This document shows positions 4,742 through 63,448 of a stretch of 64,000 nt of DNA, in pieces. The notes beneath the pieces were generated by a model that did not search any database, had not been told where the DNA came from, and worked only from the letters and a program-made list of their open reading frames with translations. A program made the position numbers and the translations under genes. The DNA comes from Microthyrium microscopicum (lineage: Eukaryota): assembly GCA_010405405.1 (NCBI GenBank), contig MU004233.1:375067-439066 (forward strand). The letters run 5' to 3'. Every line of letters starts with the position of its first letter. The first letter of the stretch is position 1.

Positions 4742-4767
4742 GGAAGTAATCTATTCAGCAATCATTT

Positions 4768-5062: not shown

Positions 5063-6029
5063 GTTATAAGCTTAGTATTCTAATATATCTTTATTATTTT
5101 ATTATTCTATATATAAATTTTTTATAAACTATATTATTATAATCTCTTAAATTCTAGCTATTATTATATACTAGTTTTAGTATTAATATCTAATATTTAG
5201 ATTATAAATTAACTTATAATATTGCTTCTAAAGTTATAATTATTACTAAAGTTAGAATTACTATCTAGAATTACTACTTCTTTAGAATAAGGTTAAGAAG
5301 TACTTTACTTTATTTATTCTTCTTTATAATAACTTATACTTCTTTTTATTACTTTATTATTTATAATACCTATTTAAATTATTAAGAAGTAATAAGAGAA
5401 CTTTACTATATTATTTAATAGTAAGAAAGAGTAAAAAATTAATAGATTAAATTAGGAAATTACTTAAAGAGGTAATCTTATAAATCTTAGAAATATAAAT
5501 ATTTTTTTATTCTCTTTTTTCTTTTTTTTCTTTTTCTCTTTTTTATTATATACTTTAAGCTTTATATCTTTATTAGTACTCTTTCTATTATATTTAGTAT
5601 TTATATAACTTTTATTATTAAGATCTTAGCGTCTTTTTATCTTTAATAGTTTTTAAAAGCTATTACTTTTTTAAATTCTTAGTACGCTAATAGCCTTAGT
5701 ATTAGTAGTATTAGAATACGTTAATAGCTTTAGTATTTATAAAGATAAAGTATAAGTAATACTTTTTACTACTTTTAGTTACTATCTAGTTTTCTGATCT
5801 TTAATAGTTCTTTTATTATTATTACTTTCTTAACTTTAAGGATTTAATTACTATTATTCCTTAACTTTAAGGACTTAACCTCTTTACTACCTTAGCTATA
5901 GTAGTACTAAAAACCTATGCTACTTTTAAGTATATCTTAAATTCTTATAGAATATTATTAGTAATTCTACTACTACTAACCTAATCTTAGTACTTTAGTC
6001 TAGGCTTAGTACGCTATAACTAGAAGGTA

Positions 6030-6360
6030 TATTTAGTAAAGATATATAAGTATCTAATTATTTTATATTCTATTTCTAAGCAAAGTAGAAGGAGTATTTA
6101 GTAAAGATATATAAGTATCTAATTATTTTATATTTTATTCTTAAGCAAAGAGATATAATGCTAGGCTTAAACTATCTAAAGAGGAAATCTAGAAAACCTA
6201 GAGAGTATAAATATCTTTTTTTCCTTACTCGTTCTCCTTCTCTTCTTTTTCTTTTTCTATATTAAGGTAGTATTTCTTAAATAAAGGTATAGAGATACTA
6301 AGGTAGTATTTCCTAAAATAAAAGTATAAAGATATTAAGGTAGTATTTCTTAAATAAAGT
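6030..6360. repeat. Short direct repeats in the Copia leader region
   Basis: TATTTAGTAAAGATATATAAGTATCTAATTATTTTATATT twice (~6030, ~6095); TAAGGTAGTATTTC three times (~6263-6350). Confidence 0.7.
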
Positions 6361-8886: not shown

Positions 8887-9109
8887 TATAAGGAGCTAAT
8901 AGGTACAATAGGCGAGTAGAAAGTAGCTAGTATTGTAGGATCTAAGTACGGAGAGAAGAGATCTAGAGATGTAGCTATAGATATAAAGAAGTAGGGGCCT
9001 AGGATATCCTTAGATATACTAACCCTAAATAGGATAAAGAGATCTTATCTATAGGATTAGATCTTAGTATCTAAATATTATAATACTAAACTTATAAGGA
9101 TTCTTTACA
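8887..9109 (-). repeat. Gypsy 3' LTR (223 bp)
   Basis: Aligns with 16382-16604; termini T[G/A]TAAGGA...TC[C/T]TTACA. Confidence 0.93.
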
Positions 9110-12100
9110 TAACTTTCCTCCTTAAAAATAGACCTTATAGGCTATATCTTAATCTAATTTGTTCTAATTTAGTTTAGTCTAGTCTAGGCTAGGCTAAGCT
9201 AGTCTATATAAATATAAACTTCTTTATATATATTACTATTAAGGAATATAGTAATATGCTATCTACTTACCTTAGTACTATCTAAATCTATTTAATAAAG
9301 AGGAGGATGTCTATTTAAGCTAGTTCGTAATATTCTATAATCTCTTTAATAGTATAAATTAATAACTAAACTAGGGGTATAATGCTATTAATAAAATAAA
9401 TAAATATAACGCTTTTTTATATTATATAATCCTAATCTACGAGTAGTCTATTAGTATTATAATCTTCTTTTTTAATTTAATTTACTAATAGGGACTAAGA
9501 TAGATGCAGACTAAGCTTCTAAGGATAAAGCCTATAGAATTCTAATATAGTATTAGGCGTGTTAATAGTATCCTTCTAAGGCTGCTAAGTTTTATTATAA
9601 AATTCTATCTATTTAATCTTATATTTAAGTACCTTATTCTTATCTCTACTATCCTATTTGCTATTAATAATAGTATTAACTAGCTATTTTTCTTTACTTT
9701 TCTTCTTACTAACAACTACTAGGGGAGGATTTAACTCCTATAATAAGTACGCGTTATTATTAATTAAATATAACAACTAGGCGTAAAATACTAGGTGTAT
9801 CTTTATTAATTTAGAAAGATCTAATTTATATATTACTTTATTAATCTTACATAATATCTTAAAAGGACTAGCGCTTTTGCTATTAAGTATCTTTAAAGGA
9901 CGAGTTATATTATAATTTTAAACGTTAAGTCATACCTAGTCTCTTAGATAGAGATCTAGTACTAGGCGTTAATATTTATTAGCGTAGAGCTTTTATTAAG
10001 CTTAAGCCTAAACTAATTGCTCCTTTAGGAACTTATAAAGCTTCTTATAATTATCCTAAACTTAATTAATAGTAATAACTTCTTTGCGCACTATAATAGA
10101 AGCATAGGACGCTTTTAGTAATAGGCAATAGGTAGATTTAAGTTCTAATTTAAGTAAGAAACTATTTTATGCCTTAAAAGGTGCAAACCTAGTAGTAGTA
10201 CTTATGGCAGAATTTATTACAAACTTAGCAAATAATAATAAGGCTACCTAATTATCCTAATCCTAATTAACAAAGGATCTAAGATACTATTTTAAAGTAG
10301 TAATAATTATTTTAGTAATGCTATTAGATTCTAGATACTATATAGTACTTAATCTTAGCATAACGCTTATACGTTTATATAGGCGACCCTAAAAGGTAAA
10401 TATAAATTAAGTTCCTTAATCTAAAAGGATTAAGTCTAGCTAACTATATAACTTCTATACTTAATTAATAAATGCTATAACTATTATTTCTATTAAAAGA
10501 CTTAGAAAAGTAATAAATTATTATAATTACGTTAAATAATTAATAATAATTATAATATACTAGTAAACTATACCTTAGTATATATAACGTAGTAGTAAAA
10601 TAGTAAAGTCTATAGAGATATTAGACTAAGCTTAATTTAGTAAAGGAAATAAATAAAGGAGCCTTTACTTCTTTTAGCATACTAGTTTTATAAAGATATA
10701 GTAATAACCTTTAATATATTTTTTAACGTATTCTAATATTCTTAGCTACTAATAATTTTATTAAAGGTAGTAGTAGGTTATTATAGTTCTTTTATAACCT
10801 ATAACTTTATATTAATGTGCTTATTTTATTACTTTATTCTATAAATACGTTATTAGTATAAATAACTTTTATTAATAAAGGATAGTACTATTTAGTAGAG
10901 CCTTATAATCTATTAATTTAATTTAATTTTAATTTAGTATACTAAAGGGCAAGAAGTAGTCTTTCTATGCCTTTACTAGTTAGATTATAATAAGTAACTT
11001 ATTTCTCTTACTTACCTTTATTACTTCCTATATAAACTACTCTAAGTTAAAATCTAAGGATTTAGTATTAACTAGTAGTAAATTATTTAAACTAGCTAGA
11101 GCTTTATTTTAAGAGCTTCTTATAATAGGTTCTAAATTAGACTCCCTTATTATAGTAATATTTAGCTTATCTAATATAAGCATAGCTATCTATATAAAGG
11201 ATAAGGTAATAGGGTTAATAAGTATTATAGTTAGTTTAATAGCTTATTTAGTGCTAAATTAATATAAGAATAGGAGTAGTTAATACTATTATTTAATCTA
11301 TAAGTCTTTATTATTCTAGAATATATTCTATAATCTTTAAGTTAAAGTATTAGCTTTACTATTATCTTTACTAGGGTAATACTTAATTAAGAAGTAAAAC
11401 TATAATAGGAATTTAGCCTAATATATTTAATAGCGTATAAGCTTCTTAGTCTTTATAAAGGTTTAAAGATTTTAATAATCTAAGAATACCTTTATAATAT
11501 CTTTAGTATTAAATAACTTAGGCTCCTATTCCTTAAAAGTATAGATAATAGTAAGTAGTTTCTTATTATAAATATTATAATTATATTTTACTAGTAATAT
11601 CTTTTTAAAGAGGAAGATAACTAGTCTTAGATTACTATTTGTATCTTTTTATAATAATATAGTAGTATAAGCCTAATCTAATACGTTTATCTCTATTTAA
11701 GTTTCCTTAGTATAGTTAAAGTATTATAGTATTAGCGCGCTAGTAAAGTTTACTTTTAGCTTCTTAAAAGCTTATTCTTTAGGCTTATTAGGATCCTAAG
11801 GAAATATAGCTAAAGTATCCTTTTAAGTAAGATTCATTAAGGATACTACTATAGTAAAGTAATTAAAGATAAACTATTAATAGAAGTTAGTAAATCTAAG
11901 GAATGCCTAAATATCTTTAAGATAGCTTAGTTATTCCTAGTTAACTACTATATTAACTTTTAAAGAGTTTATCTTAATGCTTTTTATAGTAATAATTAGA
12001 CTAAGGTATTTTACTTCTTAAATAGTAAACTCTAACTTCTTAATATTAAGAAATAAGTCTATACGTTCTAATATATCTAGTACTAAATATATATAGGCAT

Positions 12101-15100
12101 TATATTCTTCTAGTATTTTGCTAAATACTAGAATATTATCTAAATAAATAGTTATAAAATTGTTTAAAAACTATATTAGTGTATAATTAATATATACTTA
12201 GAATATTCTTAATTCTCTTATAAAGCTAAAGGGTAGTACTTTAAACTTAAATAGGCTATAGCATATTAAGAATACTATTTTATATTTATCTCTAAGTTTA
12301 ATATAGATACGTTTAAAGGTAATAATAACGTTAAACTTAAAGTAATACTTTACCTTTATAAGGCGTATAAGTGTCTTACTAATAAATAATAAAACGTTAC
12401 TATTTTTAATAATAATATTATTTAACTTATAGTAATTAATATAAACGTAGATATCTTTTCTTAGCTTACTTATATAAAGTATAAGTATAGTATATTAAGA
12501 TTTTAAACTTATAATAAAACTATACTAAAGTAGACTCTTAATATATTATTTAATAACTAAGGCTTATTTTAGTAATATTAATATAAGTTAGTATTTTAGA
12601 ATTTTAGTATTAAGGATAAGGTTAATAGTATAGTTATATTTACTATAATAGGGCGTAAGAATATCTAAATGCTTTAGATTAAAGACTTTAAAATATTAGT
12701 AGAAACGTTTTAAGATAAGTTTTAAGATCTCTTCTTTTAATAGATAAGAGTAATTTTACTTATCTTACTATTTAAGATAATTTTCCTTTAATATAGTATA
12801 TATAGTAAAATTTATAGTAAATTTATTATTATTATCTTTATTACTATTAGGAGGTTTTTTTTCTTTTTTATTATTAAAATTTTTAGGCTAGAATATATTA
12901 ACTATAGCATCTTTACGCTTTATTAGTTTCTTAAATACTACTATAGATATAAAAGTAATATCTAATTCTTTAAATAACTCTAAGTTTATAAATTGTTCTT
13001 TTAAGTCTATAATAATTAAGTATTATAATATAATATAATTTATAATATATTTTATACTATAGAAAATTAATATTCTTAAACCTTTATATAGGTTAACTTT
13101 ATATTAATTTAGTTAAAGTGCTCTTAGAATTAGATTATAAGAGGCTACTTTTATAATAAAATAGTTAATTTACTTAATGTAGTATCTAATATGTAGGTTA
13201 AGAATAGTAGTTTTATTAACTATAGATACTAACTTATTATTAGTAAGTATTACTAAGCATAGATATATAAGTTAAAAAATAAGAATATTATATTACTAAA
13301 GATAATAAGGGTTAATAATTCTTATTATACTACTACTAGTATTAATTAAAATACTAGTATTAGAGTAAGTTAAACGCTATAGTATAAATACTAAACTAAT
13401 AGTAGTCTATTATAATCTAATAATAGGATTTTTCTTTTTAATATCTTAAGGCTATATTACTAGTATAATAGAGGCTAGTAAAATATAGATAGTATATAAG
13501 TATACTAATAAGATTTATTTCTTATAAATAGCATCTTTATACTTAAGGCGCTAAATATACTAGTAAAGGTAGCTAAGTATCTTCTTAGTCTTCTCTTATA
13601 CCTTTTTTTTAATATTTTTATAGTCTTTTTTAGTCTAATAGAATATTTCTTTAGCTTTCTTAGTATTTTAGTACTACTCTTTATTATATTAATAGAATAT
13701 CTCCTTTACGTACTTAGTATTAGCATTAAAAGTATATTTCTTTCTTTTATTATATACTTTAGTCTTATTTAGCTTTTTTTTATAGCTTAGCAAAGAAGTA
13801 TCTAGTTTAAAGACTAATAATTATTATTCTTAGTAGCATTTTCTATAGAGAGTTACTATTCTTTTTAAACTTTTATAAATATTACTATTAAAGGTATAAC
13901 TAAGGCTTTAATCTTATTATTAAATAAAGGTTCTTAATCTTTATATAGTATAGTCTTATTAAAGTAGTAGTAACTCTTTTGCTTATAATAGACGTAATAT
14001 TTATCTATTTTTAAGGCGTTAAAGACGTCTATAGAATAGTTAACGTTACTAGTTTTATTGTTTTGGGCTCCTTTATTAGTAAACTAATTATTATTATAGC
14101 TATAAGAGGTATTATTTATAGTAGTAGGCTTATAATTAATTTAGCACGTAACTAAGTAAAGTTAAGTATAAAATATAGTAAAACTACTAAAATACTAGCC
14201 TATTAGTAGGTTTATAAATTTATAATTAATAAGATTTTGTAATTTAATAATCTTCTTATGCTTAGATAGTTCTATATTTACTAAATTTATTAAGAAGTAG
14301 CTAATAAAAGCTTAAAGACCTTCTATATCTTTTATTTTAGTATCTAAAGACTTTAACTATACTTTAGTATCTTTAAAAGCGTTCTTAGAGTAATAATAAC
14401 TATCTAAATCTACTTATATCTCTTTTATAGTACTATAAGGGTCCTTTAACTTATAACCTTTATATATAACTATAATACTATAGGTAGGGCTAGTATAATA
14501 AATATAGATAAACTTAATTTTTTTCTTTTTAATAGGGATATATAAGTATATATTCTTATTAAGAAGTATATTTAATATCTTTTCCTTTTACTATTTATAG
14601 TATGTAGGTTTATCTTTAAAATTACTAAGTTCTTTAAACTTTATAAGTATTACTAGGAAGGTACTATTAGCTACTAATAATAATAAGATATAGTATATTC
14701 CTTAGGCTTAAAGCTATAAGTATAAAACTACTAGATGCGTTACTTATAATATAGAATAACCTAAGAAGATATTATCTTTTAAATTATCTAGGTTAACGTA
14801 GGCTTAGTTTAAATTTATTTAAAGTCTATCCTTAAGTTCTTAGACTTAGTAGTAAAGGTTAATAACTAACTTATAATATTATAAATTAGTATTATACTTC
14901 TTTACTAATTTAGTAAGAGCTATTTATTTATTTAAATAAGTAATAGTTAGTACTAACTTATAGTTATAGTAAATTTAGCTAGTAAGTGTTTTAAAATCTA
15001 TTATTATTTAATAATAAGTAGCTACTTCTTCCTATAGTACTTCTACTAATTTACTTAGTTAATCTACTTCTATATTAGCGTTTATAAGTTCTCCTACTAG

Positions 15101-16381
15101 TTAATCTTAAAGTTTTTAAGTAGACTAGTAACGTAATACTATAGTTTAATTAATTACTAATATAGTATATAGTTATTTAAAGAATTAATCTTCTTCTATA
15201 AACTTAATATATTAGTCTAGATACTTGCTATTAGATATTAATATATAATATTTCTAGAGAGTAGTAAAATTATTAGGATTATCTTAAAGAACTATTAATA
15301 TTTATTTCTCTACCTTTAGTCTAATTTTATATAATGCTTATATAAATAAAAGCTTTATACTAGTAAGTAATATAACTTTACTATTAAGGTCTACTAGTTC
15401 TAGAGGTAAATAAAATAGAAATAATATAAGAACGTTATAAGGTTCTTTTTTACGTACTAGTAATTCTAGCTAATAGTAGATATTAATAGGTAATCTTACT
15501 TCTAATATACTTTTATTTAATAAATTACTAATAATAGTACTAGAGGTTAATACCTCTTTACCTTTTAATCCTAGCTCTTTTATTATACTTACTAGTATAA
15601 TAGGTGCTATAGTTAATAGTCTAATAATAATCTTATAAAGTTATTAAATATTAATACTAACTTAAGTATTTTAATAGAGAAATTCTTTATCTTTATTATC
15701 TAAAGCTACTTTAGGTAATAAAGGTAACTTTTTAATAAATTTAACTACTAAGATGCTTTTTTGCTATAGCGTTAATATAATAGTAGACTATTAATTAGTT
15801 CCTATATCTAGAACGACTAGCTTCTTAGTAAAATAGCTATCTTTACTACAATAGAGTAAAACTAAGTAACTTTAAATACTAATACTGCTATACTTATAAG
15901 TAATATAAAAGTTACTTAAGGATGCTAGTTTAAGACTAGGAATAAGTAATATCTTACTTATAGTAATACGTAGCTAAATAATATAGTATTTCTTAATAAA
16001 TTAAAACTAATTTAATAAATTAATAGATATAGATTTAATAAGGAATAAGGTAAGTATATTTTATAATTAGTAGAGAGGAAGTAGTATAAATGCTTCTATA
16101 GATCTAAGAAGAACACTACGGGATAAAGTTTAGGCCTCTAAGTAGTCTTTATTTTAGTAAATAACGCTAAATTTATATTACTTTAGTTAGTATTTACAAA
16201 TTTGCTAGTACCTTTAGTAATGCTAATCTTAATTAAGAGTAGTATTACTAAATACTAATTAGTTAGATTTATAATATAACTATAATAATTTAATAAAAAT
16301 TATTAAACGCCTCTATACGTTTATTAATAATATATAAAATATACGTAGAGCGTAAAATTTAATATAGAGGTACTTAGATTA

Positions 16382-16604
16382 TATAAGGAGCTAATAGGCA
16401 TAATAAGTAAGTAGAAAGTAGCTAGTATTATAGAATCTAAGTATAGAGAGAAGAGATCTAGAGATATAGCTATAGATGTAAAGAAGTAGGGGCCTAAGAT
16501 ATCCTTAGATATACTAACCCTAAATAGGATAAAGAGATCTTATCTATAGGATTAGATCTTAGCATCTAAATACTATAATACTAAACCTGTAAGGATTCCT
16601 TACA
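16382..16604 (-). repeat. Gypsy 5' LTR (223 bp)
   Basis: Aligns with 8887-9109. Confidence 0.93.
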
Positions 16605-19346
16605 TTTAGATACGTTATAGCTTAAACTTACTTACTTAGCAGTTTATTTGCTTAATAAGATTCTAAAGAAGTAGCTAAACTAGAGAATATTCTTTAAGAT
16701 AGTGTTTAAATGAGTACTAGATCTCTTATTAGTCTAAATTATTAGCTTAAAAGCCTATATTTATGATTCTAATATTCTAAAGCTTAAGAAGCTTTAATCT
16801 TGCTTAATTAAAGGCTAGCTAATAAGTTATACTAGAAGTAATATCTTTAGGGTTTAGATTCCTTTAAATAACTATATTATTAAAGTATAAGATATTATAA
16901 TTAATAAAACTATTAAATTTAATGCTACTATACTTATTATAAGTAATAACTAATTTACTAATATACCTTTAAATATATTGCTCTCTTATCTTAAAATAGA
17001 CGTTAGTAGTAGTATATTTAACCTATAAGAAGCTAAATAATAGCCTAATTAAAATTAGGAAGTATAAAATAATTAATAGTAAGAATAAGATAGCTATTAG
17101 ACTTCTAAAAATAATTCTAATTAACTTATATTTAATAACTAGCTAATAATACCTAATCTTATACTATTACTACTATCTTAGCCTTCTTTATAATATCTAA
17201 TACCTTTTATAAGTTTATTACCTACTTAAGATTATACTAAATTAAGAGAGAATACTTTAGAAGATCTTACTTCTATAATTTTACTAGTACTACTACTAGC
17301 TACCTTAATAGCTTACCTAAAATAGTAGTATATTACTAAATATAAATAAGAGATCTAAGCCTCCTAAAATATTTTTATATACGTTATAAGAAGTAGTTGT
17401 ATTTTATAATCCTTAAAGACTACTAATTTAGTACTTTATAAACCTTACTTCCTCGTCTTATTATATTATATATTCTTTATAGCTTTAGTTTAATACTACT
17501 ATAAAAGAAATATACTAGAATTACTAAAAATATAGTCTAAAATAATAAAACGCCCTAATTAAGACTAGTATCTTTTAGCTACTAGAATTAAAATTAAAAT
17601 ACTTTAGGAATAAGGTATATTTAAAGAGGTCTATACTCCTTAAACTAATAAGCCTATTTTACTTTTAAAGTAGGTATTCTTAGAGAAGTATAATTTAAAT
17701 AGCTTCTTTTTTAAATATAAGGCTAGAATCTATATAAGAAGAGATCTATAGTACTAAAATCTAGAACTAGAGATTTATGCTACTACTAGAGCTTACTATA
17801 TATTATATATAATTTTTATACTAATAGTTATATTTAATCTAGATCTTTACTAATTTAATGCTATAAATACCTTCTTAAATATTATTCTAAATAAAATAGT
17901 TCTAGTTTAATACCTTAAAAGCTTTAATATCTTTAGAAAGGTCTTACTACTTCGCTATGCTTTTTATAGATTATTAAGATCTTTATTATTATAATATTAG
18001 GATATAAGAGTTATTCTTTATATAATAAAGTTTAAGCTTATTTTAGAAGACCTCTACTTCTTTAAATATATTTAATATCCTATTTTTCTTTTTTATTATA
18101 TTAATAACTTTCTTCTTCTCTTACTAAAAGTATATTAAGTAAAAGTAAATAAAATAAAATATAAACTTAGTACGCGCTACGCTATAAGGGATTTAAGTAC
18201 TTTAAAAAGCTTCCTTAATATTTAAATACTTTAAGATTAAGTTAATTAAAAGCTTTAAATCTTATAGGACTAGTATATTAATAAAATTAGTACTAAATTT
18301 TAGCTTAATATTATAAAGAAGACTAAATATGTTATTCCTATTTTAAATCTTATTAAACTTATTCTAAATAAAGAATAAGTATCTAAAGATTAGATCTACG
18401 CCTTCTAAATATATTATAGCTTTATAATCTATCCTATAATAATATATAGGCTAAATATTTATTATATAGCTTCTTATTTAAGCTATTTTAATTAGAATCC
18501 TTCTAAGCTTTACTACTATAAGATTAAGAGAACTATTCTATATCTTTAAGTAATAAAATACCTTATACTTAAGTATTATAGAACTATTAAAGTATTTACT
18601 ACTAGTAAAGAAGTATTTCTTATAGCTTATAATGCTATATTTATAAATAATTAGGAGACTTAAAGATTAACCTAGGGCTTTCTATTTAACTTATTTAGAG
18701 GACCTATTAGCTAGTAATTTTTATGTTAGAAGATAGTCTTAATATCTATAATAGAAATAGAACTTCTATTCCTCTTAAATACTTTAAAAGAGCTAATCTT
18801 AATTTAACGTTTCTTTTTATAGCTTAACTTTAATCCTAATATTAAAATACTAATATTAAATAATAATACTTAAATAGTAGGTATTATAATAAAGTAAGCT
18901 TAGCTTTTATCTTTTAGATTAAAATACGTTAATATATATTAGTTCTAGCTTTATTAAGAAGTTATAAAGAGTTATATCTTTATTAAATAGGTTCTTATAG
19001 GCTAGATACTAGTAAATAGTTTAATAAAAGCTCTCTTTTTATAAGAATATAAGAAGTTTAAGAAGATACTAAATTTAATAAATATAGAGTACTTAGTACT
19101 AGCTTAGAAAGATTCTTTCTAAAATACTATAAATATTCTTACTATTACTATAAATTACTAAATCTTCTATATTTTTATATAAGCTAAATCTCTTATATTA
19201 GGATTACTTAATAGTACTCTTTATTTCTTATTTTAATTAGTTTTAATATTTTAGTAGCTTAGTCTTAGAAAACCTAAAAATTAATATTCCTTTATACTTA
19301 ATACTAAGTATATCTTAAGATTTATAGGTTAGAAACTTAAAGAGTA

Positions 19347-19641
19347 TAATAGAAGATTTATTCTAAACCCTAGATTTGTACTAGTTCTAATTTAGGATTA
19401 GGAAGTAGAAATACTAAAATTTAGCCTTTATTAGCTATTATATCTTTTTATTTTTTCTACTCTTTTCTATATATTACTTTTGCCTTTATTATAACCTAAA
19501 TTCTAGGCTCTAAGAAGATACGTTTTACGTCTTTAATAGGGTATAAATACTATAGTTATTATAGTAGTTAGTTAATTAGATTCTTTAATGTTCCCTTCAC
19601 CGATTCTGCATTCCCTAAGCTGCACGGACCGTATTCCGTCA
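19347..19641 (+). repeat. Copia 3' LTR (295 bp)
   Basis: Aligns with 4768-5062; ends CCGTCA followed by TSD CATTT. Confidence 0.95.
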
Positions 19642-20560
19642 CATTTCTCGCGATAGGGACTGGGGCCCTTGTCGGTGTTCATGAACTGCGTCCAATCATG
19701 CCCTGCCCTGCTGCTTGTCATTGTGAAATTGAACGCGAGTTGCGTTATAGCAAATACTTCCTCCTGTGGACAATCTATTTTGTTCATTCTGCTTATTTAG
19801 GTATTGTTTCGGTCTATAGCAACTCGATCATTCTAGCGTGAGGCATCCTATTACAACTCACACGACCCTGAGCGGTCTCGAATTGACGAACAAGATACAG
19901 TATGTAGCCCGGAAAATTCCTCCCTAGAGATAAATGAAACTTCAAGGAAGTACATTAGGCCACAATAACTACTGGGGGGTTGATTCTCTTGATAAGAAGG
20001 CTCGCATATATCATAGATATAGAAGAGAACTCGAAATCGAACTTGCGAGTCTTTGCGTCTTACAACTAGTAAGATCAGCCAAAAGCCAACATAACACACG
20101 CTAAATTGAGCCATATGTCCAAGGCAATCTATGCTTTGACCAGCAACGAAATTTATCAATCGATGATTCAAGCCATGGATTTCTACTGGTCAGTATCATC
20201 CAACTTGGCCCATACCATTTGTCGATTGAGCTCGTAGGTTTTGGCTCAACATGACAAAGCAGATTCATGAGGCTGAAGGACTGCGACGAAACTCGAACTA
20301 TGCATCTAGTTCAATCACACCAATAGCCAGTCGTATATCCAAAGAGCTTCTTGGCCGGCTTATCTAAATTTCATAACATTTCTGCTATAAAAGCTCAGGT
20401 GTGGATCTCAAAGCTGCTACTTTCAGTCTCTCATTTCTCTCTCTCCAGGTTTGGCACCTCCTATCACTACCAGCACAGATTCTAGACAATGTTAAGCAGC
20501 GACTGTCCAGTATTTGATCCAAAATACCTGAATTCTAAGGACGAATGTGCATCATGTGAC

Positions 20561-52830: not shown

Positions 52831-55800
52831 TTAAAAATCTCCACTAAGGAGATGTTCTACTGCGCGCTGTACTTTGCCACCACTTTTGCGCAAGGCCTTG
52901 ACATTATGCTCCGATTCATAGAAGCCCATGTCGTTGAGTTGTCGCAGCTGGTCAACGTATGGTTCCTCTGAAGCTTGTCTACTGTGATATGGCAGGTTTG
53001 TGATGCCTCTACCTCTTGATTCCTCCGGGGCTGAAGCGAAATCTTCATCAGCAATTTCGACTGGGTAGCGACCTTCTTGTGTCTCACTGAACCAGGGAGA
53101 TGTAATCCGTCCCTGGCTATCAATGAACGGGTTGGTAGGTCTAACTTCATCGTCACCCTGCCTTTCACCAGTCCGGCTAGCAATTTGTTTCTGGTACTCC
53201 GAATCATCTAGGAGGGCTGGAGGGATAAGAGGCTCATGTTGTATTCTGAGAGACTCCAAATCACTTGCCCACCCCTTACTATCGTGGGTCGCCCGTGATT
53301 TATTCTTCGCTGTCTTTGATTGTTCTGGTAAGGATTCAAACTCTTCATCTTCTTCACCGTCATCGTTGATGGGCCGTCTGTAACGCTTGTGTGTGGAGGA
53401 AGGAAACTTCCCACTGGAAGGTGATGTTCTCGAATCTGTTCCTCGACGTTGTAGCCCCCTGATCCTCGCTCGTTCTATTCTGTTTACCGCCTGGAGGGCA
53501 ACATCATCCTCAAGCTCTTTTGTAGACGACCAATTAGCAATAGCATCATGTGTCATAGCCTCATCGGGTAAAATGGTAAAGTTGCCGCTTTTTACGGATG
53601 ATCCGCTCGGTTCGCTCAGCAACCATTCCAAGAATATAGTTTTTAGTCGGTTGCCATGTTCATCGACAAGGCTTATATCGTTGCGTTTCAGAATACTATC
53701 TGACACATAACGCTGCGGCTTTTCCCATGATAGACCAGAGACCAAATCGAATTCGTGGGTGTCAGGTAAATTAATTACGACATCAAATGATTTCGCCTGT
53801 AGGGAATTAGATCATGTCGTGTTATATGTGATGTAGGATGGATACTTACATTTCTGTCACCGATCATCTGGGGCTCTTTTTCACTTTCGCTGGAGTCGTT
53901 TTCAACATAAATGTTGCTTGACCCGATCGCACAGTCGTACTCCATGTCGGAAGCATCAATAATAACAAAACGAGTCCTTCGTAGTTTAGCTTTTGTACCT
54001 GACCTTTTTATCCACTCTAAAGCGATGGTCTCTCGTATCTCTGTGTCAGCAGTTAGGTTCTGGTCTTCCATAACTCTTCTCGAAATGCAACTGTTAACAT
54101 TTCTACATTTCCTAGCTGTCAGGGCACAGTACTGGCGTGTCGTGGGATTGAGAACAAGAATATCAAAAGGCTTTTCCTGAGGGGAGCATTAATTAGAGTC
54201 CACTGGAAAAGACTTTGCGAAAATTGATGTGACTTACTTCGGGCTTGAAGGTTGGTACGTATAAGCCCGCACCTAAAAAGGCATGATCTTCTTCTCCGCT
54301 CTCACTCGAATTGCTTTCTGCGCTTTTCCAGCCCGGGTCGGTTTCTCGTGGGATGGGTGCTGGGAAAAGCGGTGATGGCGGTACGGAGGGATTGGACGGT
54401 GTACCTTCAGATTTTTCTGATTCGAAAGATAATTGTGCTGATGCGGTCGTGTTATCTGATTGCGACGGAAAGCGTCTAGGGCTGTCAATAAACGTTTTGC
54501 TACTGTCAATACCAAATCGGCCTAAATCGCTGGCATGAGATTGGTGTTAGACAGTCCCATCGGACTTGATGGGAGCCATCGAATGCTATGGGAGCCAGCA
54601 AATGCTTCCCATTTCGGTATTTTATGTTGGAATATGATGGAGGTGCATACGAATAGATTAACTTACCCATCGCTAGACTCATCTGCAAAGTAATCGTTCT
54701 CTGCAAAATAGTCTCTACCTGACAAATTGGCGGCATCGCGATTCTCGTCGTAAATGGCTGGCGGATTCAACTCCCACGTTGGTGATAGATGGATGGCTGG
54801 TGTTTTCAAGTCCCAGGAGAATGATGGAGGTATAGTTGTCTCACTCTCGCCTTCTGGACCAACACATTCCAAGGTGTCGACCCACTCGAGGACTCTGTCA
54901 TTGTCGTTGATAGCGATATTGTATGTTCCAATCGGTTTATCAAGCCGTAGTATGACAGGCTTAGGCCATGGCAGCGAACGAAGGGAGAAATCGTGGATAT
55001 GTTTGAAAACGTGCTCGAGTAGCTCTGGTGAATCTGGAGGGCCGGAGGAATCACAAAGGGGGCACTTTGTCAAGCCCATAGTTTGGACCGCGAATTGTGA
55101 TAAAATCGTTGCCAGATCGAGGGCTTCTCCTTCGGAATGAATCTCTTGAAGGTGATTCATCAAAGCTGAGGGCTCTTGAAAAATTGGGGGATCGTCATGA
55201 CAGTATAAACACTGCCATCGTGGAGGATGATCGTTCATAAAATGCTCATTCCACTCTTTCTGGGTGACGAAAAGCTTGAAAGGCGTTGGGCAGTCATCTA
55301 AAATACAGGTATAAGGACACAGATCGTTAGCAATGTGTCTCCTGGGTTATGTTAGAAAAATCTGAAAAGATTTGTGTCAATGTAAAGTATATGGAGAAAT
55401 GTTTCTTACCTCCACTGAGTAGAGTTGTTGGCTTCCTCAAAAGGTATGGCCTGGCAACAGCACGGGCATTTAAACATTTTTTGATCAGCTTTCGCTGTCT
55501 TTGGATTGGGATACTGAGCTGATCCTGTAATTGCTGTTATACGAGTCTGGGGCGATTTAATGTGCTGTCGAAGACCTTGAAAAGCGGTCTCAGGAACAGA
55601 AGCTGATACTCCTGACGCCGTAAATGCCGCACTTTTGGCCAAAACGGAAGGCTTGCTGTTGGTTTTTATTTGCGTTTCCCGACGAGTGACTGAACCTGAA
55701 GTTGTGCCCCTTGACTGAGTGCTCTTCGAGGCCCCAGGATGTTTAATACCGGTTGGAATTGGTGCCACAGGCAGATTTAACGATCTATCTCTCAATTGAT

Positions 55801-56623
55801 ATGAATGACGTTGGGCCTGTGTATGGTCAGCATAAGTCTGAGCCATCAGGGCAACTTACCTCCAAGAACCGGTGACGCCGTCTCAAATTCGCTTCAACTA
55901 AGCGTTTGCCAGGACTACAGGCTGTCAATGAGAGATTCATGATGAGATTGTCCGCACCCGTGATAATGAAAGGAATATATGGGCGGATAACATACCCTTC
56001 TAACTCAACGTCGGCAAAGTGATTCGGATCATAGGTTTCTCTGACGTTCCGGTCTGGCTTTGATATGATGAGGCAGTTGAGATGTGCTCTCAATTCTCTA
56101 TGTTGATTCGGGTTAAACGAGTTATCGGCCTTCTGCAAACGGCTCTTCTTCCCACTCTGTCGAATTGCAACTCCAATCGAAGCAAGGTTTTTCATCATTG
56201 AATCTACATTCTCCATTGATTCTGTGGAGCCATCGAATTCTGTCAGGAATTCCTGAAGAAGTTGCAGTAAGCCTCTGACAAGATTGGTATCATTCGGTCG
56301 CTGTTGGAACCTCTGGTCTAGTGATGCCTAGAAGTGTTCGTTAGTCAGGGCGTTCATTTTGGAGGCTTTGGCATTAATAATATCAATATGTGTTGAGCTC
56401 TTGCAAAACTCTACATGATATTCATGAGCCATGCAGGTTTTGATATAGACTTTACCTTATCACGGGCAACAGCGCCGACACTGTCAGCCCATAACTTCAA
56501 ATCTGCCAATCGATTTTGGAGGTGTGTCTTTTGAGCAGTGTCGAGGGCATCATTTATACACTGACCAAACTGGGCTATACAAGATCTCGTCAGATCTGAC
56601 GTCGATTTTTTTGAGTTATCCAT
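52831..56623 (-). CDS. Multi-exon protein: N-terminal helical domain, C2H2 zinc-finger cluster, two pseudo-retropepsin-like repeats, C-terminal UBA domain
   Basis: About 8 exons joined in frame via GT-AG introns (e.g. 56455-56328, 55409-55342, 54666-54530, 54237-54177, 53848-53797); RLADLKLW...ASLD; CPCC...RH...DLCPYTC; CLYC...HLQEIH; CPLC...HVFKH...SLPW; UBA QLRQLNDMGFYESEHNVKALRKSGGKVQRAVEHLL. Confidence 0.8.
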
Positions 56624-57309
56624 TGTGTTGATAGTCGTGTGAATATTTCTCTAGAACCTTTCAAATCCTGGACATTAAACTACCGCTGTAGCCTGATTGT
56701 CTGATCAGTTGAGTCTCGTTCACAAGTATCGGAGTTTGTGAGCACACGATATTCTCCTACCTAATGCGCTCACTGCAAGTCAGCGCGCTACCAATATTGA
56801 GTGCAATACCGGTATAGCTTCATATCGAAGATTCCGACGTAAGAAAACAGTCTAGTTGCACAGTGCGGAGCAAAAGAGCTGCTCCAATGGCATGCGGTCA
56901 TAACATAAGCGATAATGTATGATGCGCCTGTGGAGGTATGAATGTCGATAGAAAGTGAAGTCACTGTTTAAAGCAGGTCGAGTTAACTCCCAGTGAATTC
57001 AGCATCGAATATCTAACTGTGAGGACCAATCCGTGCCCGCATTTCGTTTTTACTAATAGAGGAACAGGATCCTGGTGCGGGGCTCTAGAGTCGTCCTATA
57101 CATGTATGTGGACATGCATCTGCAGACTGCATGATATAACCAATTAGGATCAAGAAATGCCTACTAGCGAACTGTTATGATACGGTAATTAGGCGGAGTG
57201 TACCCGCCTCCTCAGCTTTGGTATCAATGTTGGACTCAAACTCGAAAGCAACCTTCCCCATTTTTCAGCTACCTCGCTAGGTTTTCATGTCTTGACAAGA
57301 CTTCTGGAT

Positions 57310-60300
57310 ATGGCCTCGGCTCTGAGAGCCCCAGTGAGCTCAACATTCCTTTCATCGGTAGCACTTGAGGCTTGGAAACTGGTCTTACAATGCGCGATCA
57401 ACGTAAAATCTCAGCCGGGTGCAACAATAGCGACTAAGCTCAACATTATACTGGGGCACCTCGAAACGCAGCCAATCTACCTTTTACATCAGGATGTTGA
57501 CAGGTTATCCAATGAAGTCCTGAGAGACTTATACAGGATGAGCACGTTAAGCAAAGTTGGAGGAACATTTGACGGAAACATCGAACCAAAGGACATTCAT
57601 GACCGTTTGCTCAAGCTATATCAAAATAAGAAGCTGCAGATGCAAGTTCAGCTTTCAGTCGAGAAGTTTCTCAGTAATAGCTCGAAATCCGATATCGATC
57701 CATATCTGAGGCACCTCGACGATCTCTTGGGAAAGTTGGTTACCAAAGAGTCAAGTCGTGATCAAAACATCCCACACTACGAACACATGCAAGTTGAAGA
57801 TCAACAGGAGCATCCAAAACTGGTCAAAGAACAACTTGCTAGCATTATACGCAAGCACGCAGCTTGCATTGAAGATGACGGTACTTGGCACCCGACCAGG
57901 CTGTTTTTAGAGACTGGCTCTAAGACAAAAGCGAACTATTCGGACTTTGATTTAGTTGTCGCGGCGGCTGATATGAAGTAAGTTTCTCCGTTACCCATTG
58001 CGAAAGTGCTACTGTTTTGGCAAGTACCTGACAATGCCCAAGTACCATGTGCCTCCCATCTAATCTTATATCTACCATGTAGTGCGATGGGGGATTATTG
58101 CTAGATGCATATGTCATATCTCACGCGCACTTTCACTTCGTATACTCACATATTTCAGGTTTTGGCAGGAATTTTCTCTCAGAATTCCTATGGAAGATGA
58201 TGAAAACCTCTCTAGCTCTAGTGAGGAGGATGAATATCGCATCGAGTTAGACGAAGGCGATATCTGTGATATCATAACTGAGCAAACATTTGCAAGAATT
58301 TGCTTGCAATTCGATAGGGAGGATCGTTCGTTGTACAAACTTCAAAGCTTCCAGACACTTTCACATTCGATGTCTACGGGCTACGGCTGGTCGCTCTCTG
58401 ATGTATTGCAAAAATGTGATTTATCTGTTGCAGACAAGATCACATTAGCACATACTGTTTCACACGCATGCTGGCAGTTTTACGATTCGGCTTTAATGGA
58501 TGCAAAATGGACTAGCGAGGATATCTGGTAAGGCTTCCTACACCTGCGTTAGGTCGCTGGCGAACCTATCCAATGCCAAGAAGAGTCGATGAAGATTTGG
58601 CATCGGAAGAGGCTTCTCTCTTTTTCAGCACACTTGACTCCTGACTTGACTATTACTCCGATGATATACTAACTCATTACAGGTTTATGCCCGGAGACCT
58701 CATAAATCAGCACAGTGATCGCATCCAACTAAAGCCATTTATATCATTTCCATTCGGACCTTGTAATGATTTTCCAGCAGAGTTCCCTCAGGCAGATCCG
58801 GTCACACATCGATATTCAAGGATTCTTCTTCTAGGGATTGTCCTCCTGGAGATAGGCCTGGGTCAGCGAGTTGAGATCAAATCATCCCCATCCTGGAGCC
58901 TTCACGCACAGCTTAATTTCACTCATAATATTGCCAAAGCGGCTTTGAATCAATTTAAAACGACAACATGGGACGACTTCTCCTTCAAAAGCACATATGA
59001 AGAAGCCATTGAAAACTGCTTAAACTCAATGAATTTTAAAGACGTACAGAAAAGAACACGAAAGGTGCATGGGAGAAAGTCGCAAATAGCACCACATGCC
59101 ATAGGGAAAGGACCAGAGGAAAAGGTACGAGTAGATAAGACTGATTCAAACAAACGCTCATCTTCACCAATGTCCCAAAGAAGAGATGCGCTTTATCGCA
59201 AGGTGGTGGCTCCTCTGTCTTGGTTGGCCAATGTGGGATTTGAGAGTTCGAATAAAGCTTCCTTTGCAATGATTCGAAAAGCTTCAAGGTCTCAAGAAAA
59301 CATTATTGACAATGGCGCTTTCTTGGGAATGTGGAGCCAAATACGGGCCGCAAAGTTTCATTCAGGTCAGCCAGTTCGTGCCGAAGATTGGATGCAAAGT
59401 CTCAAAATCATCGCTGGTCATATATTTCAGTGTAGGCGAGCTGTAAGCACTGCCTTGAAACCAATTCGCATCGCAGTCTTGGATACGGGGCGAAATCCCA
59501 CTGTTCTATTCTTCAAGAGCCCACAAAGAGCACGCTGGATCAAGGATTGGAAAGACTTTGATGGCGGCTCAACTTCCGCAGTAGACGAGTTTGGTCATGG
59601 AACTTTTATGATCAGACTCATCATGGAAGTGGCTCCCATGACAGAGATCTATGTAGCACGCGTGGCTCAAACAACTGATGGACTCGAACAGAACGAATCA
59701 CAAGTTGCAGAGGTTAGTATTTTCGTAACAATTGCGACTTTTGACAGATGTTGACCAACATTTCACAGGCAATTGAGTGGGCAGGCCTGGAGCATCAAGT
59801 TGACGTGATCTCGATGTCATTTGGTTTTCCAAAAGCTAGTAAAAGAATCTCCGAAGCGATTGCTAAAGTAAATTTAGAACGAAATGGCTCGGTAGTCTTT
59901 CTTGCCAGTGCTGGGAACTCGTCTAGCTACCAGGGTATACCATTTCCTGCTCGACACCCATCAGCCATCCCAATCTTTGCTACGAACTGTAGGGGAACAT
60001 TTCTCGAATCTAATTCCACTCAGTACGATAAGATAGAGGCACTCGGTACCTACGGGGATGATATTCCGAAATCGCTCTTAGATGAGCTTCGACAGCATTG
60101 TTCAGATGCAATTCTACAACCAGGAACATCAGTCGCCACGGCGATTGCGGCAGGAACTGTGGCAATGATGCTATCTTATACTGCCGCTCTATCTTCCCTG
60201 ACGGGATTTACGGGGGGTCCGGAGGTTTTTGGAATCAAACTCAGAGTTGGGATGAGAAAGGTGCTTCGCCGAATGTCACAGCAAACCGGTTCTCGTCGTT

Positions 60301-60619
60301 ATTTCATCAATCCGGTAAGTTTCCCCAGTGTTAGATTCAAAGTTCTTGACGACATCCGATGGAAACAAAACACCACGTCTCCCATCGCACTCGATGGCTA
60401 CCATACGATGCGTTCCTGACCGAGTACTATATCTCCCACCGCATGCGATGGAAGCTTTAAAGTTTCTCATTCGAAGGCCACTTGAGCTTTTCAAGCGTGT
60501 CAGTTGTGCTGGAACATTATACTAATACATTTCAGGTCAGATTTTGGGCGGACAAACCAAACGACAACGAAATGTTTGTAGAGATGTGTGCAGCTATATC
60601 GGATGTCAGTCTGGAGTAG
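57310..60619 (+). CDS. Intracellular subtilisin-like S8 serine protease with large N-terminal region (HET-Q2-type architecture), 5 exons
   Basis: Introns 57978-58158, 58528-58682, 59713-59768, 60315-60535 join in frame; catalytic motifs IAVLDTG, DEFGHGT, ASAGN, GTSVATA; no signal peptide; central degenerate kinase-like segment (WTSEDIWF...LGIVLLEIGLG...YEEAIENCL). Confidence 0.9.
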
Positions 60620-60689
60620 AGAAGCTCTGGTTTTCTGTAGATATCTGATTAAAAGTTTGGAAGGATGAAATCGAAGCTACAGGCCTTTC

Positions 60690-60900
60690 AACGGCATAGC
60701 AAAATAAAAGGCGTACTCCCATCAACTCTGATGGCGCCCAGAGGCTACGGTTTGTTATCGAGTGCTTTATTTGCCATAAAGGGCGTTCAGATTGGGAGTA
60801 TTTATCAGATACGATGGGAATTAAAGCGCCTTTTAATTAGCAGCGCTGGTGGTAGCCATCAGAATTGATGGGAGTACGCCATTTATTTTGCCATGCCGTT
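60690..60900. mobile_element. 211-bp MITE-like element with 51-bp TIRs and 7-bp TSD GCCTTTC
   Basis: Arms 60690-60740 and 60850-60900 are reverse complements with 5 mismatches; GCCTTTC at 60683-60689 and 60901-60907. Confidence 0.88.
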
Positions 60901-62333
60901 GCCTTTCTCGGAATCAAAAGAAATACAGATGTCGTCTCCAATTGTTGATTCTGTGAACTCAATCTCCTCCTCTATATCATCCTTGAGTTCCTGTTTATCA
61001 GCTTCAACCATGATTGGAGGCTCTTCACTGCCAGAGCCTTCGCCGGTCATAAAAGCGGATTTGTGCGAGAATAATTCGCCCTGTGGCCCAGCTCGCTTGG
61101 GTCTGACCACGTGTAATCTATAGGCAAACACAACCCCGGCAGCAGTGTTATATGAGTCTGTCACGGTTTTTGCTCGATGATGTGCGACAGACGCTCCTAC
61201 TTCGACAGGGGCGATCCCACCTGCGGCAGGACCAGACCTGAAAGTCGTTAGTAATACTAACATGTTTCGGCAAGACCGTTTGGTCCTTCAAGAAGTAGGA
61301 AACCATAAACAACTTAGATCAATCGCATGCATTGGGAGCCATAGCACTCGATCAGGTACGCAATCTATGGGAGCCATATGGGAGCCATCAGATATGCTGG
61401 CCACCAATCTTGGTAGGTTTCGAATGTCATCAAGCATCAAGATTTGACACGGGGCGATCTTACCCTGATAGCTCAGTGTTGAAGTTGCTTCCGACCTCCG
61501 TCTTCACTTCAAACGACTGCTGAGCAATGCGAAGTCCAGACACGACGTACAGTGGTCGCTTCCCGAACATTCCAGAGTCAATTTGGCCACGAACGGCAGG
61601 CAGATTGGAGATGGCTAGTAGTGCCTCAGCGGAAAACGGCTGTGCGAACATCTTGATTTGGTGGTCTGCGGTGCCGTAGGTAAGTGCTGCGTGGCTTCCG
61701 ACGTTGGTTTTGATCGAAGTGGAAGCGACCTCCTGGGGTTCGTCAGTACAAAATGTCAATTATGTGTGAAGATTTCTGGCCATTTTATGACCAAGAGTAG
61801 GCTGAGCGAAGACGCCAGTCGCTCCAATCGCGTTACATGGCTCCCATCGTACTCGATGGGCCTCTTAGAGAACTTCTCGACATGCATATCAAGGGGTTGA
61901 CAAAATAAATGGCGGGTTCCCAGCGAGTGCGATGGCTCCCATACAAGACGATCGATTATCAAGTGCTTTATTTACCACCGACCGCGTTCAGACTTGGGCA
62001 ATTTATCGAAAGCGATGGGAAATATAACACCTTTTAATTAGCAGCGTTCGTGGGAGCCATCGACGCTGATGGGAGAACGCCAGTTATTTGAGAGAAACGT
62101 ACCAGAAATTTAGCCCAGATACTAAATTCATTTGACTGTGAGCGAGAATTGGAATGTGTATGATTCTTCTCCGTTACGGTATCAACCTTGGGGAGCACAA
62201 TCTCCGGATGGCTGGACCCGTCAATTGATGCAAGTACGAGTGTCGGCCTTGACGGGTGAGATAGTACTGTTCCAAGCTGCAGCGGGCCATCGGAACTAAA
62301 ACTGAAGTCTGGAGGTAGAAACCAAGTCGGCAT
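60883..62333 (-). CDS. Fungal gasdermin (HET-Q1/RCD-1-like pore-forming cell-death protein), 3 exons, 284 aa
   Basis: Exons 62333-62103, 61732-61464, 61237-60883 (855 nt, in frame); family-typical segments TWFLPPDF...GPLQLGTVL.HP..P, PLYVVSGLRIA, VVFAYRL; SAFM followed by an acidic C-tail; adjacent to an S8 protease. Confidence 0.85.
61891..62101. mobile_element. Older, diverged copy of the 60690-60900 MITE inside gasdermin intron 1
   Basis: Collinear shared blocks: CAAAATAAA.GGCG, TTATC[A/G]AGTGCTTTATTT, GCGTTCAGA, ATTTATC, CGATGGGAA, CCTTTTAATTAGCAGCG, AGCCATC-N6-GATGGGAG.ACGCC. Confidence 0.82.
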
Positions 62334-63448
62334 GATTATGCTTGCTGGAAAATGTAGATCAATTCAAAGAGCAAGCTGTAAGGTAAAAATCAGAGAGCAA
62401 TATTAGTACGTGCTAGCGTTGGGCATGAGGTTACGCGGAAATGGCGCATTATTCTGCAGACGATATCGCTGGGCTGTAGCTGCATGCAAGCAAGCTATCA
62501 AGATTAAAACTACCTGTTACTAGTAGCTCGAATTGAAGTTCAATTTTCTATTCCATAAAGCCCATAACTTTTGGGGAACAGTACCTTCTTTCCGACGTAC
62601 TCACTATCTGAATTTATCTAACCTCGTTGTATCAGTCGAATTCGAATACGAATTTGAAGAGAGAGATTTTGAGTGATATATAATCCCGTCTTTTACAGAG
62701 CGTGATGGGTATTTGTCCAGGTCGTGTCTGAACTTGAGTGAGACGAATAGACGTTACAAGATACTAGTAGATTCAAGTTATTGTAGAGCATCGTCACCTC
62801 GCAACTAATAATCGATCGCACTCTTTACCTTGTCTTACTATTCCAAACGCGCGCTATGGCAACACTGGAGCGAACTTCGCTTCCCGATGCTCAACGGCAT
62901 ATTTTTCGAAGGACATCCTATCTGCGCGCCAAGTTCAATTTGTAAATCGAAACAACGATGCAGCGAAGTGGTGAAGAACTTTTAACGACGTGCAGATGGC
63001 TGTGCCTCCTGTTGGAAGATTTCTTCTCGTGTATCTCGTGGTAACGAGTTTAGGAGATCAAGATCAAGCTGCGAAGATCACGGCTGTTCTGGAGAAGAAG
63101 ATGCTGCTTACCATAGCGTGGAGGGGGGAGTTATAGAAATCATCATATGATGATTTGGTACACAAATCTACAATTTCTTCCCCTTTGCCGATTAAAGTTA
63201 TGCAGACATTGTTGTTACGATGATGAAAGCATAATTGAGAAGAATAAAAACGATCATAACATGCTAAAGTTATTCGTTCTTGCCTAAGATTCCCCTATGA
63301 TCATTTGCAAAACTCCCCCTCGCGCGCTATTTATGGTAGGCAGCTGGACCGAACATGCTGGCCCAAGTCTATTTCGCAGATGCAGCCACAGCTGGTGCGA
63401 CTTCAGCATCAGGTTCTGAAGATCCAGTAGCATGTTCGGTCCAGCTGC

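Follow-up and report, generated by a model that had tools for sequence, protein, structure and literature searches.

A MITE-related insert behind the donor site may account for look-alike introns in a convergent protease–gasdermin gene pair of Microthyrium microscopicum

Introduction

Why should the last introns of two unrelated genes resemble each other? The question is raised by a 64,000-nt stretch of Microthyrium microscopicum DNA (contig MU004233.1, positions 375,067 to 439,066 of the forward strand; hereafter the window), in which an S8 protease gene and a gasdermin-like gene converge and the last intron of the former (intron A) is similar to the last intron of the latter (intron B). Fungal introner-like elements (ILEs) were reportedly described by van der Burgt in 2012, and an introner-like gain in both genes was the original prediction for this locus. 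Our analysis favours another answer, to which we give a probability of roughly 55%: an insert related to a local miniature inverted-repeat transposable element (MITE) would have entered two young introns of ~80 nt just behind the donor site, and would not have created them.

Results

Introns A and B are genuine and alike beyond chance

60315-60535, + strand: intron A, S8 intron 4 (last of four), 221 nt, phase 0, GTAAGT...TACTAAT-N3-TTTCAG
61238-61463, - strand: intron B, gasdermin intron 2 (last of two), 226 nt, phase 2, GTAAGA...TACTAAC-N3-TTTCAG

Both are real introns. The protein junction over intron A (FINP|VRFW) is collinear with 32 S8 homologues, whose conserved C-terminus (FINP|IWFW...K) aligns to the product of the terminal exon (VRFWADKP...); that over intron B (ELSG|SGP) is collinear with 27 gasdermin homologues, and the gasdermin protein is collinear across both its junctions. 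The original prediction had placed the introns and quoted their strings as they occur, but it misread their common ending, which is TACTAA-N4-TTTCAG and not TACTAA-N5-TTTCAG.

Local alignment of A with B scored 61, as against 16.8 ± 2.2 in dinucleotide shuffles, and global alignment 22, as against -133 ± 14; none of 1000 shuffles reached either score, ruling out chance similarity and placing the likeness first read by eye far above shuffled controls. BLASTN with the window as database gave 59 nt at 79.7% identity and E 1e-9, well below the cut-off for intron-intron BLAST (E <1e-5) in the introner pipeline outlined in passages of PMC12130899. Over the whole length, MAFFT aligned the two with 126 identities in 212 aligned positions (59%); from nt 6 to the end of a conserved core identity is 76% (Kimura two-parameter distance, K2P, 0.30), and the longest exact match is 9 nt. 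At 221 and 226 nt, A and B stand apart from 16 other short candidate introns of 46-86 nt (these controls, like the set of 18 candidates used below, come from a heuristic joining of open reading frames (ORFs), not from annotation). The folding energy of A is ordinary (z -0.88, 39 of 200 shuffles folding as well) and that of B somewhat low, marginally so (z -2.75, 0 of 200); the consensus fold of the two sequences is weak (-15 kcal/mol), and neither intron matched an Rfam family at E up to 5.

As had been noted, the genes are unrelated and convergent, the introns differ in phase (0 and 2), and the copies form an inverted repeat, with core arms 866 nt apart and 702 nt between the introns. Recombination between them would, as predicted, swap the terminal exons out of phase. 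The hazard was nevertheless overstated, because the longest identical run is only 9 nt within 76% identity, and homologous recombination between A and B is improbable.

The likeness stops short of the 3' end

60324-60459, + strand: eA, putative inserted segment of A (intron nt 10-145), 136 nt, 5' module plus MITE-like core, bounded by 7-nt repeats
61317-61455, - strand: eB, putative inserted segment of B (intron nt 9-147), 139 nt, homologous to eA
60394-60452, + strand: core arm in A, 59 nt, carrying the palindrome CCATCR-N4-YGATGG and GATGGCTNCCA
61319-61377, - strand: core arm in B, 80% identical to the arm in A

Homology covers only the donor-proximal two thirds of the introns, some 140 bases that start a few bases past the donor. 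It comprises a 43-nt 5' module (nt 6-48; 66% identical, with 0 of 2000 shuffles reaching its score under seven of eight scoring schemes) and a 59-nt core (80-83% identical, z 21), and ends ~80 nt short of the acceptor. The ~60 nt that lead from the core to the branch point align no better than shuffles (p 0.06-0.87 over eight scoring schemes); in the last 25 nt (p 0.03) only the splice signals are shared, and the exons flanking A and B show no likeness. The claim of similarity from the donor onward and in the core was thus right but for a few bases, and does not extend to the 3' end, where the two introns look random to each other for ~60 nt. The pipeline mentioned above asks, in the passages available, for similarity that reaches both exon-intron boundaries without entering the exons (PMC12130899); in A and B it reaches the 5' boundary and not the 3' one. 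An nhmmer search of the 64-kb window returned no third copy of the 5' module, and the unit specific to A and B counts two copies there.

Direct repeats flank the shared segment, and short introns remain without it

60317-60323, + strand: first AAGTTTC in A (candidate target-site duplication, TSD), intron nt 3-9, part of the working donor GTAAGTTTC
60460-60466, + strand: second AAGTTTC in A, intron nt 146-152, at the 3' edge of the A/B homology, which with the donor GT restores a 78-nt intron
61456-61462, - strand: TAAGATC, first copy of an imperfect repeat in B, 5/7 identical to TAAGTTG
61310-61316, - strand: TAAGTTG, second copy in B, which with the preceding donor G restores an 80-nt intron starting GTAAGTTG
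58528-58682, + strand: S8 intron 2, 155 nt, with a perfect AGGCTTC repeat at 58531-58537 and 58610-58616 (intron nt 4-10 and 83-89)

The AAGTTTC repeat around the shared segment of A has P 0.019 in a shuffled edge region and 0.063 with its position unconstrained; it has the 7-nt length of the TSD of the neighbouring MITE, GCCTTTC, and the same TTTC end. Removal of nt 10-152 of A leaves a canonical 78-nt intron, GTAAGTTTCTCATTCG...TACTAATACATTTCAG, which starts GTAAGTTTCTCA and has its own branch point and acceptor. Removal of the B insert and one repeat likewise leaves an 80-nt intron, GTAAGTTGTT..., with a perfect GTAAGT start and its own branch point and acceptor, the 5/7 repeat of B being not significant alone (P 0.76). 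The interiors of the 78- and 80-nt leftovers show no homology to each other. A reading of A and B as spliceosomal twin introns (stwintrons) was rejected by inspection, no AG preceding the relic donor. The relic donors lie at 60458 in A and at 61318 in B.

S8 intron 2 is built in a comparable way: the first copy of its repeat (P 0.034) lies within the donor region, and removal of a 72-nt insert and one copy leaves an intron of 76 nt. The 72-nt insert itself was found to be unrelated to eA, eB and the MITE and had no detectable relative in the window, and comparison lends no support to its being kin to any of them.

A local MITE family shares the core

60690-60900, strand not assigned: MITE copy 1, 211 nt, terminal inverted repeats (TIRs) 46/52 (z 12), TSD GCCTTTC at 60683-60689 and 60901-60907
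61890-62101, strand not assigned: MITE copy 2, inside gasdermin intron 1 (370 nt, 61733-62102, - strand)
54530-54666, - strand: intron of a third gene, 137 nt, with two GATGGCTCCCAT motifs, only the motif core being common with A and B

The element at 60690-60900 fits the definition of a MITE in its TIRs, TSD, small size and presence in more than one copy. Its two copies can be aligned over 210 nt in collinear order and without a gap at 73% identity (score 143, z 58), and no TSD could be recognised at copy 2. The family is marked by the palindrome CCATCR-N4-YGATGG followed by GCTCCCA. With at most one mismatch, GATGGCTCCCAT occurs nine times in the window (0.21 expected), and the hairpin pattern 12 times (0.16 expected); nearly all occurrences lie at 54.5-62.1 kb, in A, B, gasdermin intron 1, both MITE copies and the third-gene intron, with lone one-mismatch matches at 27727 and at 40253, the latter within a 328-codon ORF.

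The MITE-like stretch is confined to the core of A (nt 49-138) and of B (nt 48-145), at z 5-9; the 5' modules and the 3' parts do not resemble the MITE. A relation to the local MITE, part of the original prediction, accordingly holds for the core and fails for the rest. That A or B might be collinear with the MITE over the full length was rejected, the flanks adding nothing beyond the core (p 0.25-1.0), as was a reading of A and B, whole or as inserts, as TIR-bounded elements, since TIRs are absent from eA (p 0.45) and eB (p 0.19). Tested for family membership by their termini, eA and eB fail; tested by internal sequence and 7-bp repeat, they have the core (z 5-9) and a repeat that is complete in A (7/7, P 0.019) and partial in B (5/7, not significant). 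The third-gene intron was considered as a further member and rejected, its 5' region being dissimilar to those of A and B (p 0.6 and 0.1). That gene (52831-56640, - strand) encodes a C-terminal UBA domain (E 1.9e-6), the one Pfam match in its product.

MITE copy 1 overlaps the last 18 nt of the gasdermin coding sequence, having inserted 4 nt before the original stop codon, and has thereby changed the end of the frame from ...SEKGL* to ...SEKGNGMAK*, with the new stop within the MITE. The altered residues fall in the C-terminal piece that proteases remove from HET-Q1-type gasdermins.

The position of S8 intron 4 appears young

The age of the positions was tested indirectly with 91 short sequences homologous to S8 exon 4, almost all of them of jgi, lgn or ena origin. 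At the intron-3 junction 29 of the 91 begin, with heads that do not align (e.g. MLLLT) and that are translated through a CTAAC branch point; another 59 start past the junction, nearly all at Met705, and three span it. Judged by how they start, we infer that these fragments are unspliced open reading frames. The intron-4 junction is crossed by at least eight aligned residues in 80 of the 91, and six more extend beyond it by tails of 17-32 residues; five end before it and are uninformative, and none stops at it. Because all 86 informative fragments cross this junction uninterrupted, in contrast to the intron-3 junction, at which 29 of 91 begin, the intron 4 position would not be ancient: the sequences suggest that it is used by no sampled homologue, and that the intron 3 position is widely shared. 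Among longer homologues of ORF type, P0074, P0077 and P0085 likewise run across the intron-4 junction. S8 intron 3 itself (59713-59768, 56 nt, GTTAGT donor) lies inside the S8 domain, at a widely shared position.

For gasdermin intron 2 the evidence is thinner than for S8: the ORF-like P0096, P0097, P0103 and P0119 cross its position, and P0098 and P0106 diverge 3-6 residues past it. Of the two introns, then, S8 intron 4 sits at a position of intron gain, as is typical of ILEs, with weaker evidence for its gasdermin counterpart. Intron positions appear to be very variable in the gasdermin family. Near residues 132-153 and 199-205 of the window's gasdermin-like protein, the match to several homologue fragments stops or turns divergent.

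The long introns of the pair have similar ends

57978-58158, + strand: S8 intron 1, 181 nt, 5' and 3' ends as in A, reversed hairpin motif at 58075-58094

The long introns of the pair that lack a MITE copy (S8 introns 1, 2 and 4 and gasdermin intron 2) all have the junction ...CAG|GT, and the |GT is found in 0 of 18 other candidate introns (Fisher p 1.4e-4; AGGT/AG background 5.5%); three of the four also have G|GT at the donor. Their last 22 nt are identical at 11-14 positions pairwise, compared to 6.8 ± 2.3 in controls (permutation p 2e-4), and introns of this CAG|GT class end in TATACTAAC-N4-TTTCAG. The pattern TATACTAAYNNATTTCAGGT matches only these four introns and one site in an AT-rich block of the window, and is circular by construction. 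Together, these ends hint that the four host introns share an origin, perhaps in an older introner-like wave with (G)GT junction duplication; the homology specific to A and B is not explained by this.

The host genes are a het-Q1/het-Q2-like pair

57310-57977, 58159-58527, 58683-59712, 59769-60314 and 60536-60619, + strand: exons of the S8 gene (het-Q2-like protease), 898 codons, DUF7580 and Peptidase_S8
62333-62103, 61732-61464 and 61237-60883, - strand: exons of the gasdermin-like gene, 284 codons

The window is a stretch of a filamentous ascomycete with GTAAGT and TACTAAC as intron signals. The S8 gene has a Pfam match to Peptidase_S8 (E 1.9e-12), and its top homologues, at ~50-53% identity, are mainly from Leotiomycetes. 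Scytalidium, Xylogone and Phialocephala are among the sources of the closest homologues. For the 284-codon gasdermin-like protein Pfam gave no named family, and a homologue search with the ORF of gasdermin exon 3 gave no match; a profile of 18 gasdermin-like homologues matches Neurospora RCD-1 (8jyz, E 7e-4) and bacterial gasdermins, and the first matches of an AlphaFold model of homologue P0099 (predicted local distance difference test, pLDDT, 77) are gasdermin pores, with 8jyz_A (RCD-1 pore) at E 5.9e-9. The two genes converge, with 263 nt between their stop codons. Because of the Peptidase_S8 neighbour and the profile and model matches to gasdermins, the pair is classed, on sequence and modelled structure, as a het-Q1/het-Q2-like gasdermin-protease cluster, and the S8 protease probably activates the neighbouring pore-forming gasdermin-like death protein.

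As described in passages of PMC8851545, such a cluster is a gasdermin-fold gene less than 10 kb from an S8 or CHAT protease gene, a spacing found here; 63% of 1,884 fungal gasdermins cluster with S8-type protease genes, and in HET-Q-type systems the S8 protease cuts off a short C-terminal piece of the gasdermin. Other features in those passages also have their counterpart in the window: the gasdermin-fold gene adjoins an S8 protease gene with an N-terminal extension, and its short acidic C-terminal tail is preceded by an LF motif on the gasdermin side. The likeness concerns the host genes only, a role of introns or transposons in the clusters being absent from these passages of PMC8851545.

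P0034, a gene model of 1198 residues from a species of Chaetothyriales, runs from an S8 C-terminus directly into a gasdermin N-terminus (...DGPLQLGTVIAHPKKPTLVLATL...), and probably represents two tandem same-strand genes fused in annotation, in contrast to the convergent pair here. Downstream of the gasdermin promoter, several repeats are nested at 63113-63582: a pair of inverted arms of 35 nt (63113-63147 and 63296-63330) matching at 77%, an inverted repeat of 23 nt without mismatch (63337-63359 and 63429-63451) and a direct repeat of 34 nt (at 63448 and 63549). They may be another small element. The window also holds a ~15-kb block at ~4500-20000 with 19-25% G+C, as against 44-52% elsewhere, which looks like a repeat region degraded by repeat-induced point mutation.

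Discussion

A probable insert in existing introns

What has to be explained is the homology with its limits, the repeats, the gene models and the unconserved position of S8 intron 4, all of which the analysis shows. The reading we favour is that one non-autonomous DNA element of ~136-139 nt, whose core would come from the repeat family of the MITE 150 bp away, lies behind the likeness of A and B. It would have been placed directly past the 5' splice site of two pre-existing, ordinary introns of 78-80 nt, duplicating 7 bp of target as the MITE does, and the upstream copy of the repeat would have kept the donor intact (GTAAGTTTC in A), so that splicing would still remove the whole enlarged intron and leave the proteins unchanged. 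The host introns themselves may be young, the S8 intron 4 position being absent from all sampled homologues. From the arrangement we infer that the 7-nt repeats are target-site duplications, that the insertion followed the birth of the introns and that the element prefers donor-like ...AAGYTTC targets. We favour secondary insertion because it predicts direct repeats and relic donors inside the introns, a lack of 3' homology and remainders of normal size, none of which is expected of an introner that makes a whole intron. The MITE copies, in contrast, stay collinear at 73% over 210 nt, whereas the A/B homology stops short.

Several points weigh against this reading. TIRs are missing from eA and eB, and conservation is weaker at their outermost bases than in the core, neither of which is typical of a cut-and-paste element. 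The P values of the 7-nt repeats are post hoc, since the repeats had been noticed before they were tested, and that of B is not significant alone. Three insertions at near-equal offsets (after nt 9, 8 and 10 in A, B and S8 intron 2) would need a strong target preference; the leftovers are also near-equal (76, 78 and 80 nt) and longer than most of the 16 short candidates, a uniformity that is simpler under a whole-element origin. The CAG|GT junctions and similar last 22 nt of the four long introns, and the lineage-specific position of S8 intron 4, which an introner origin directly predicts, point the same way. The copy census covered the 64-kb window.

Alternative origins

The leading alternative, unlikely in our view, is the introner-like gain first proposed for this locus: the whole 221- and 226-nt introns would be the work of an intron-generating element with a donor, a branch point and an acceptor of its own, the two introns coming from different subfamilies of which only the functional parts are still alike. 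In both introns the similarity starts within 5-8 nt of the donor and runs in the same orientation; yet despite 76% identity over the 5' 130 nt it is gone in the ~60 nt before the branch point, and the requirement of similarity at both boundaries excludes the pair. The near-equal lengths, three to four times those of the 16 other short candidate introns, would suit a common element, whereas the canonical 78- and 80-nt remainders would not, nor would the presence, within the intron where the homology ends, of a 7-nt repeat together with a relic donor of GTAAGT type. The positions speak for the idea, with that of S8 intron 4 absent in 86 of 86 informative homologue fragments and that of gasdermin intron 2 run through by four ORF-like homologues. 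On this count the original prediction was borne out, as the S8 position is not ancient, although the signature is that of an element landed in pre-existing introns, the very outcome it had named as fatal to itself. The ...CAG|GT of all four long introns and their alike 3' ends could mark a common origin with (G)GT junction duplication, and transposon-derived introners are known, ascomycetes included, from passages of PMC12130899 and 10.1101/2022.06.06.494994. Against this, the window holds two copies, the third-gene intron having the motif only, and excess folding energy is lacking in A and marginal in B.

A scheme in two layers we put forward tentatively, as a speculation that is itself rather unlikely. 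An older introner-like burst would have made the four long introns, which share 3' ends and a (G)GT repeat over both junctions and lie at positions absent in homologues; later, a MITE-related element homing behind 5' splice sites (target ...AAGYTTC, a donor-sparing safe haven) would have entered three of them at one offset.

It is decidedly less probable that a single insertion, into A with a perfect 7-nt duplication, was followed by inverted local copying into the neighbour 0.7 kb away, through break repair or template switching by way of short donor homology (GGTAAGTT) and the AAGTT of the repeat. Both copies do lie in adjacent convergent genes, with all motif-bearing copies within 54.5-62.1 kb and none in the other ~40 kb of gene-rich window sequence, and the insert has an equal offset in both introns. 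The imperfect (5/7) repeat flanking the insert in B is what a homology junction, rather than a true duplication, would give, but homologies of 7-9 nt are very short, and what separates GTAAG from the element is not alike in the two introns, TTTC in A and ATCG in B. Moreover, K2P 0.30 implies an old event, hence one indistinguishable from two transpositions.

Conserved function, as an intronic RNA (e.g. a small nucleolar RNA, snoRNA) or as shared control of splicing or retention that couples protease and gasdermin expression, is very improbable indeed: the pair is a functional two-gene death module (passages of PMC8851545), UGAUGA-like and CUGA boxes can be read by eye in the shared part and a 7-bp hairpin in the 5' module survives three one-sided changes, but neither intron matches an Rfam family at E up to 5, no terminal stem of a C/D RNA was seen on inspection, conservation extends 35 nt beyond the putative D box, the two sequences give a weak consensus structure (-15 kcal/mol) and the core motif is common to a transposon.

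Relation to known systems

The closest precedent is that of repeats within regular introns, which mimic multi-copy introns in three fungi (PMC3609843) and which the introner pipeline filters out through its requirement for similarity at both boundaries, according to passages of PMC12130899. As there, A and B have similar sequence in introns of unrelated genes that makes up only part of the intron, with internal flanking direct repeats and an unrelated remainder; unlike there, the insert abuts the donor (after nt 8-9), so that the similarity appears to start at the splice site, has no TIRs, and sits in lineage-specific host introns.

With ILEs and the class of low-copy near-identical introns (LCI), as characterised in PMC3609843 and in passages of PMC4457414, A and B have in common that they are long canonical introns at non-conserved positions in unrelated genes of Pezizomycotina; both have canonical donor, branch point and acceptor and are longer than regular introns. 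ILEs, however, come in tens to hundreds of near-identical full-length copies with low folding energy (PMC3609843), whereas the 64-kb window holds two, 59% identical, without 3' homology, and the folding energy of A is ordinary. Descriptively, A and B fit the LCI class (few copies, unrelated genes; PMC3609843) better than ILEs. The introner pipeline asks for at least four members in genes of different paralogy groups, in the passages available of PMC12130899; the window offers two such genes.

Like introners of transposon type (Huff 2016 via PMC11282704; 10.1101/2022.06.06.494994; PMC12130899; passages of each), the insert is MITE-related and has a short putative target duplication, one copy of which overlaps a splice site. 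In the introners that these passages describe, however, the duplication lies at both exon-intron junctions and the element spans the intron, whereas in A and B both copies are intronic and ~70 nt of unrelated intron follow. Ascomycete introner families have been reported without TIRs or TSDs in passages of 10.1101/2022.06.06.494994. The sister (stw)introns of Hypoxylaceae, as passages of PMC8469720 present them, are also sequence-similar introns at novel ascomycete positions, but they have terminal inverted repeats of 45-55 nt and no flanking duplications, and A and B are without such repeats. The literature searched on introners in Leotiomycetes and on MITE-linked fungal intron gain with target-site duplication contained no account of such a case.

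What the locus implies

A transposon insert right behind the donor can pass for an introner, which matters to screens that deduce gain from the similarity of introns to one another; the telling features here are the absence of 3' homology and the putative target duplication inside the intron. The locus also documents a young intron in the gene for a gasdermin-activating protease, and a cell-death gene pair in which one repeat family has settled heavily, a MITE among its copies having changed the last residues of the gasdermin. The older burst, if true, would be a case of a junction-duplicating introner in an ascomycete, where introners have been reported without TSDs. Donor-proximal targeting or (G)GT junction repeats, if either were true genome-wide, would bear on the birth and growth of fungal introns.

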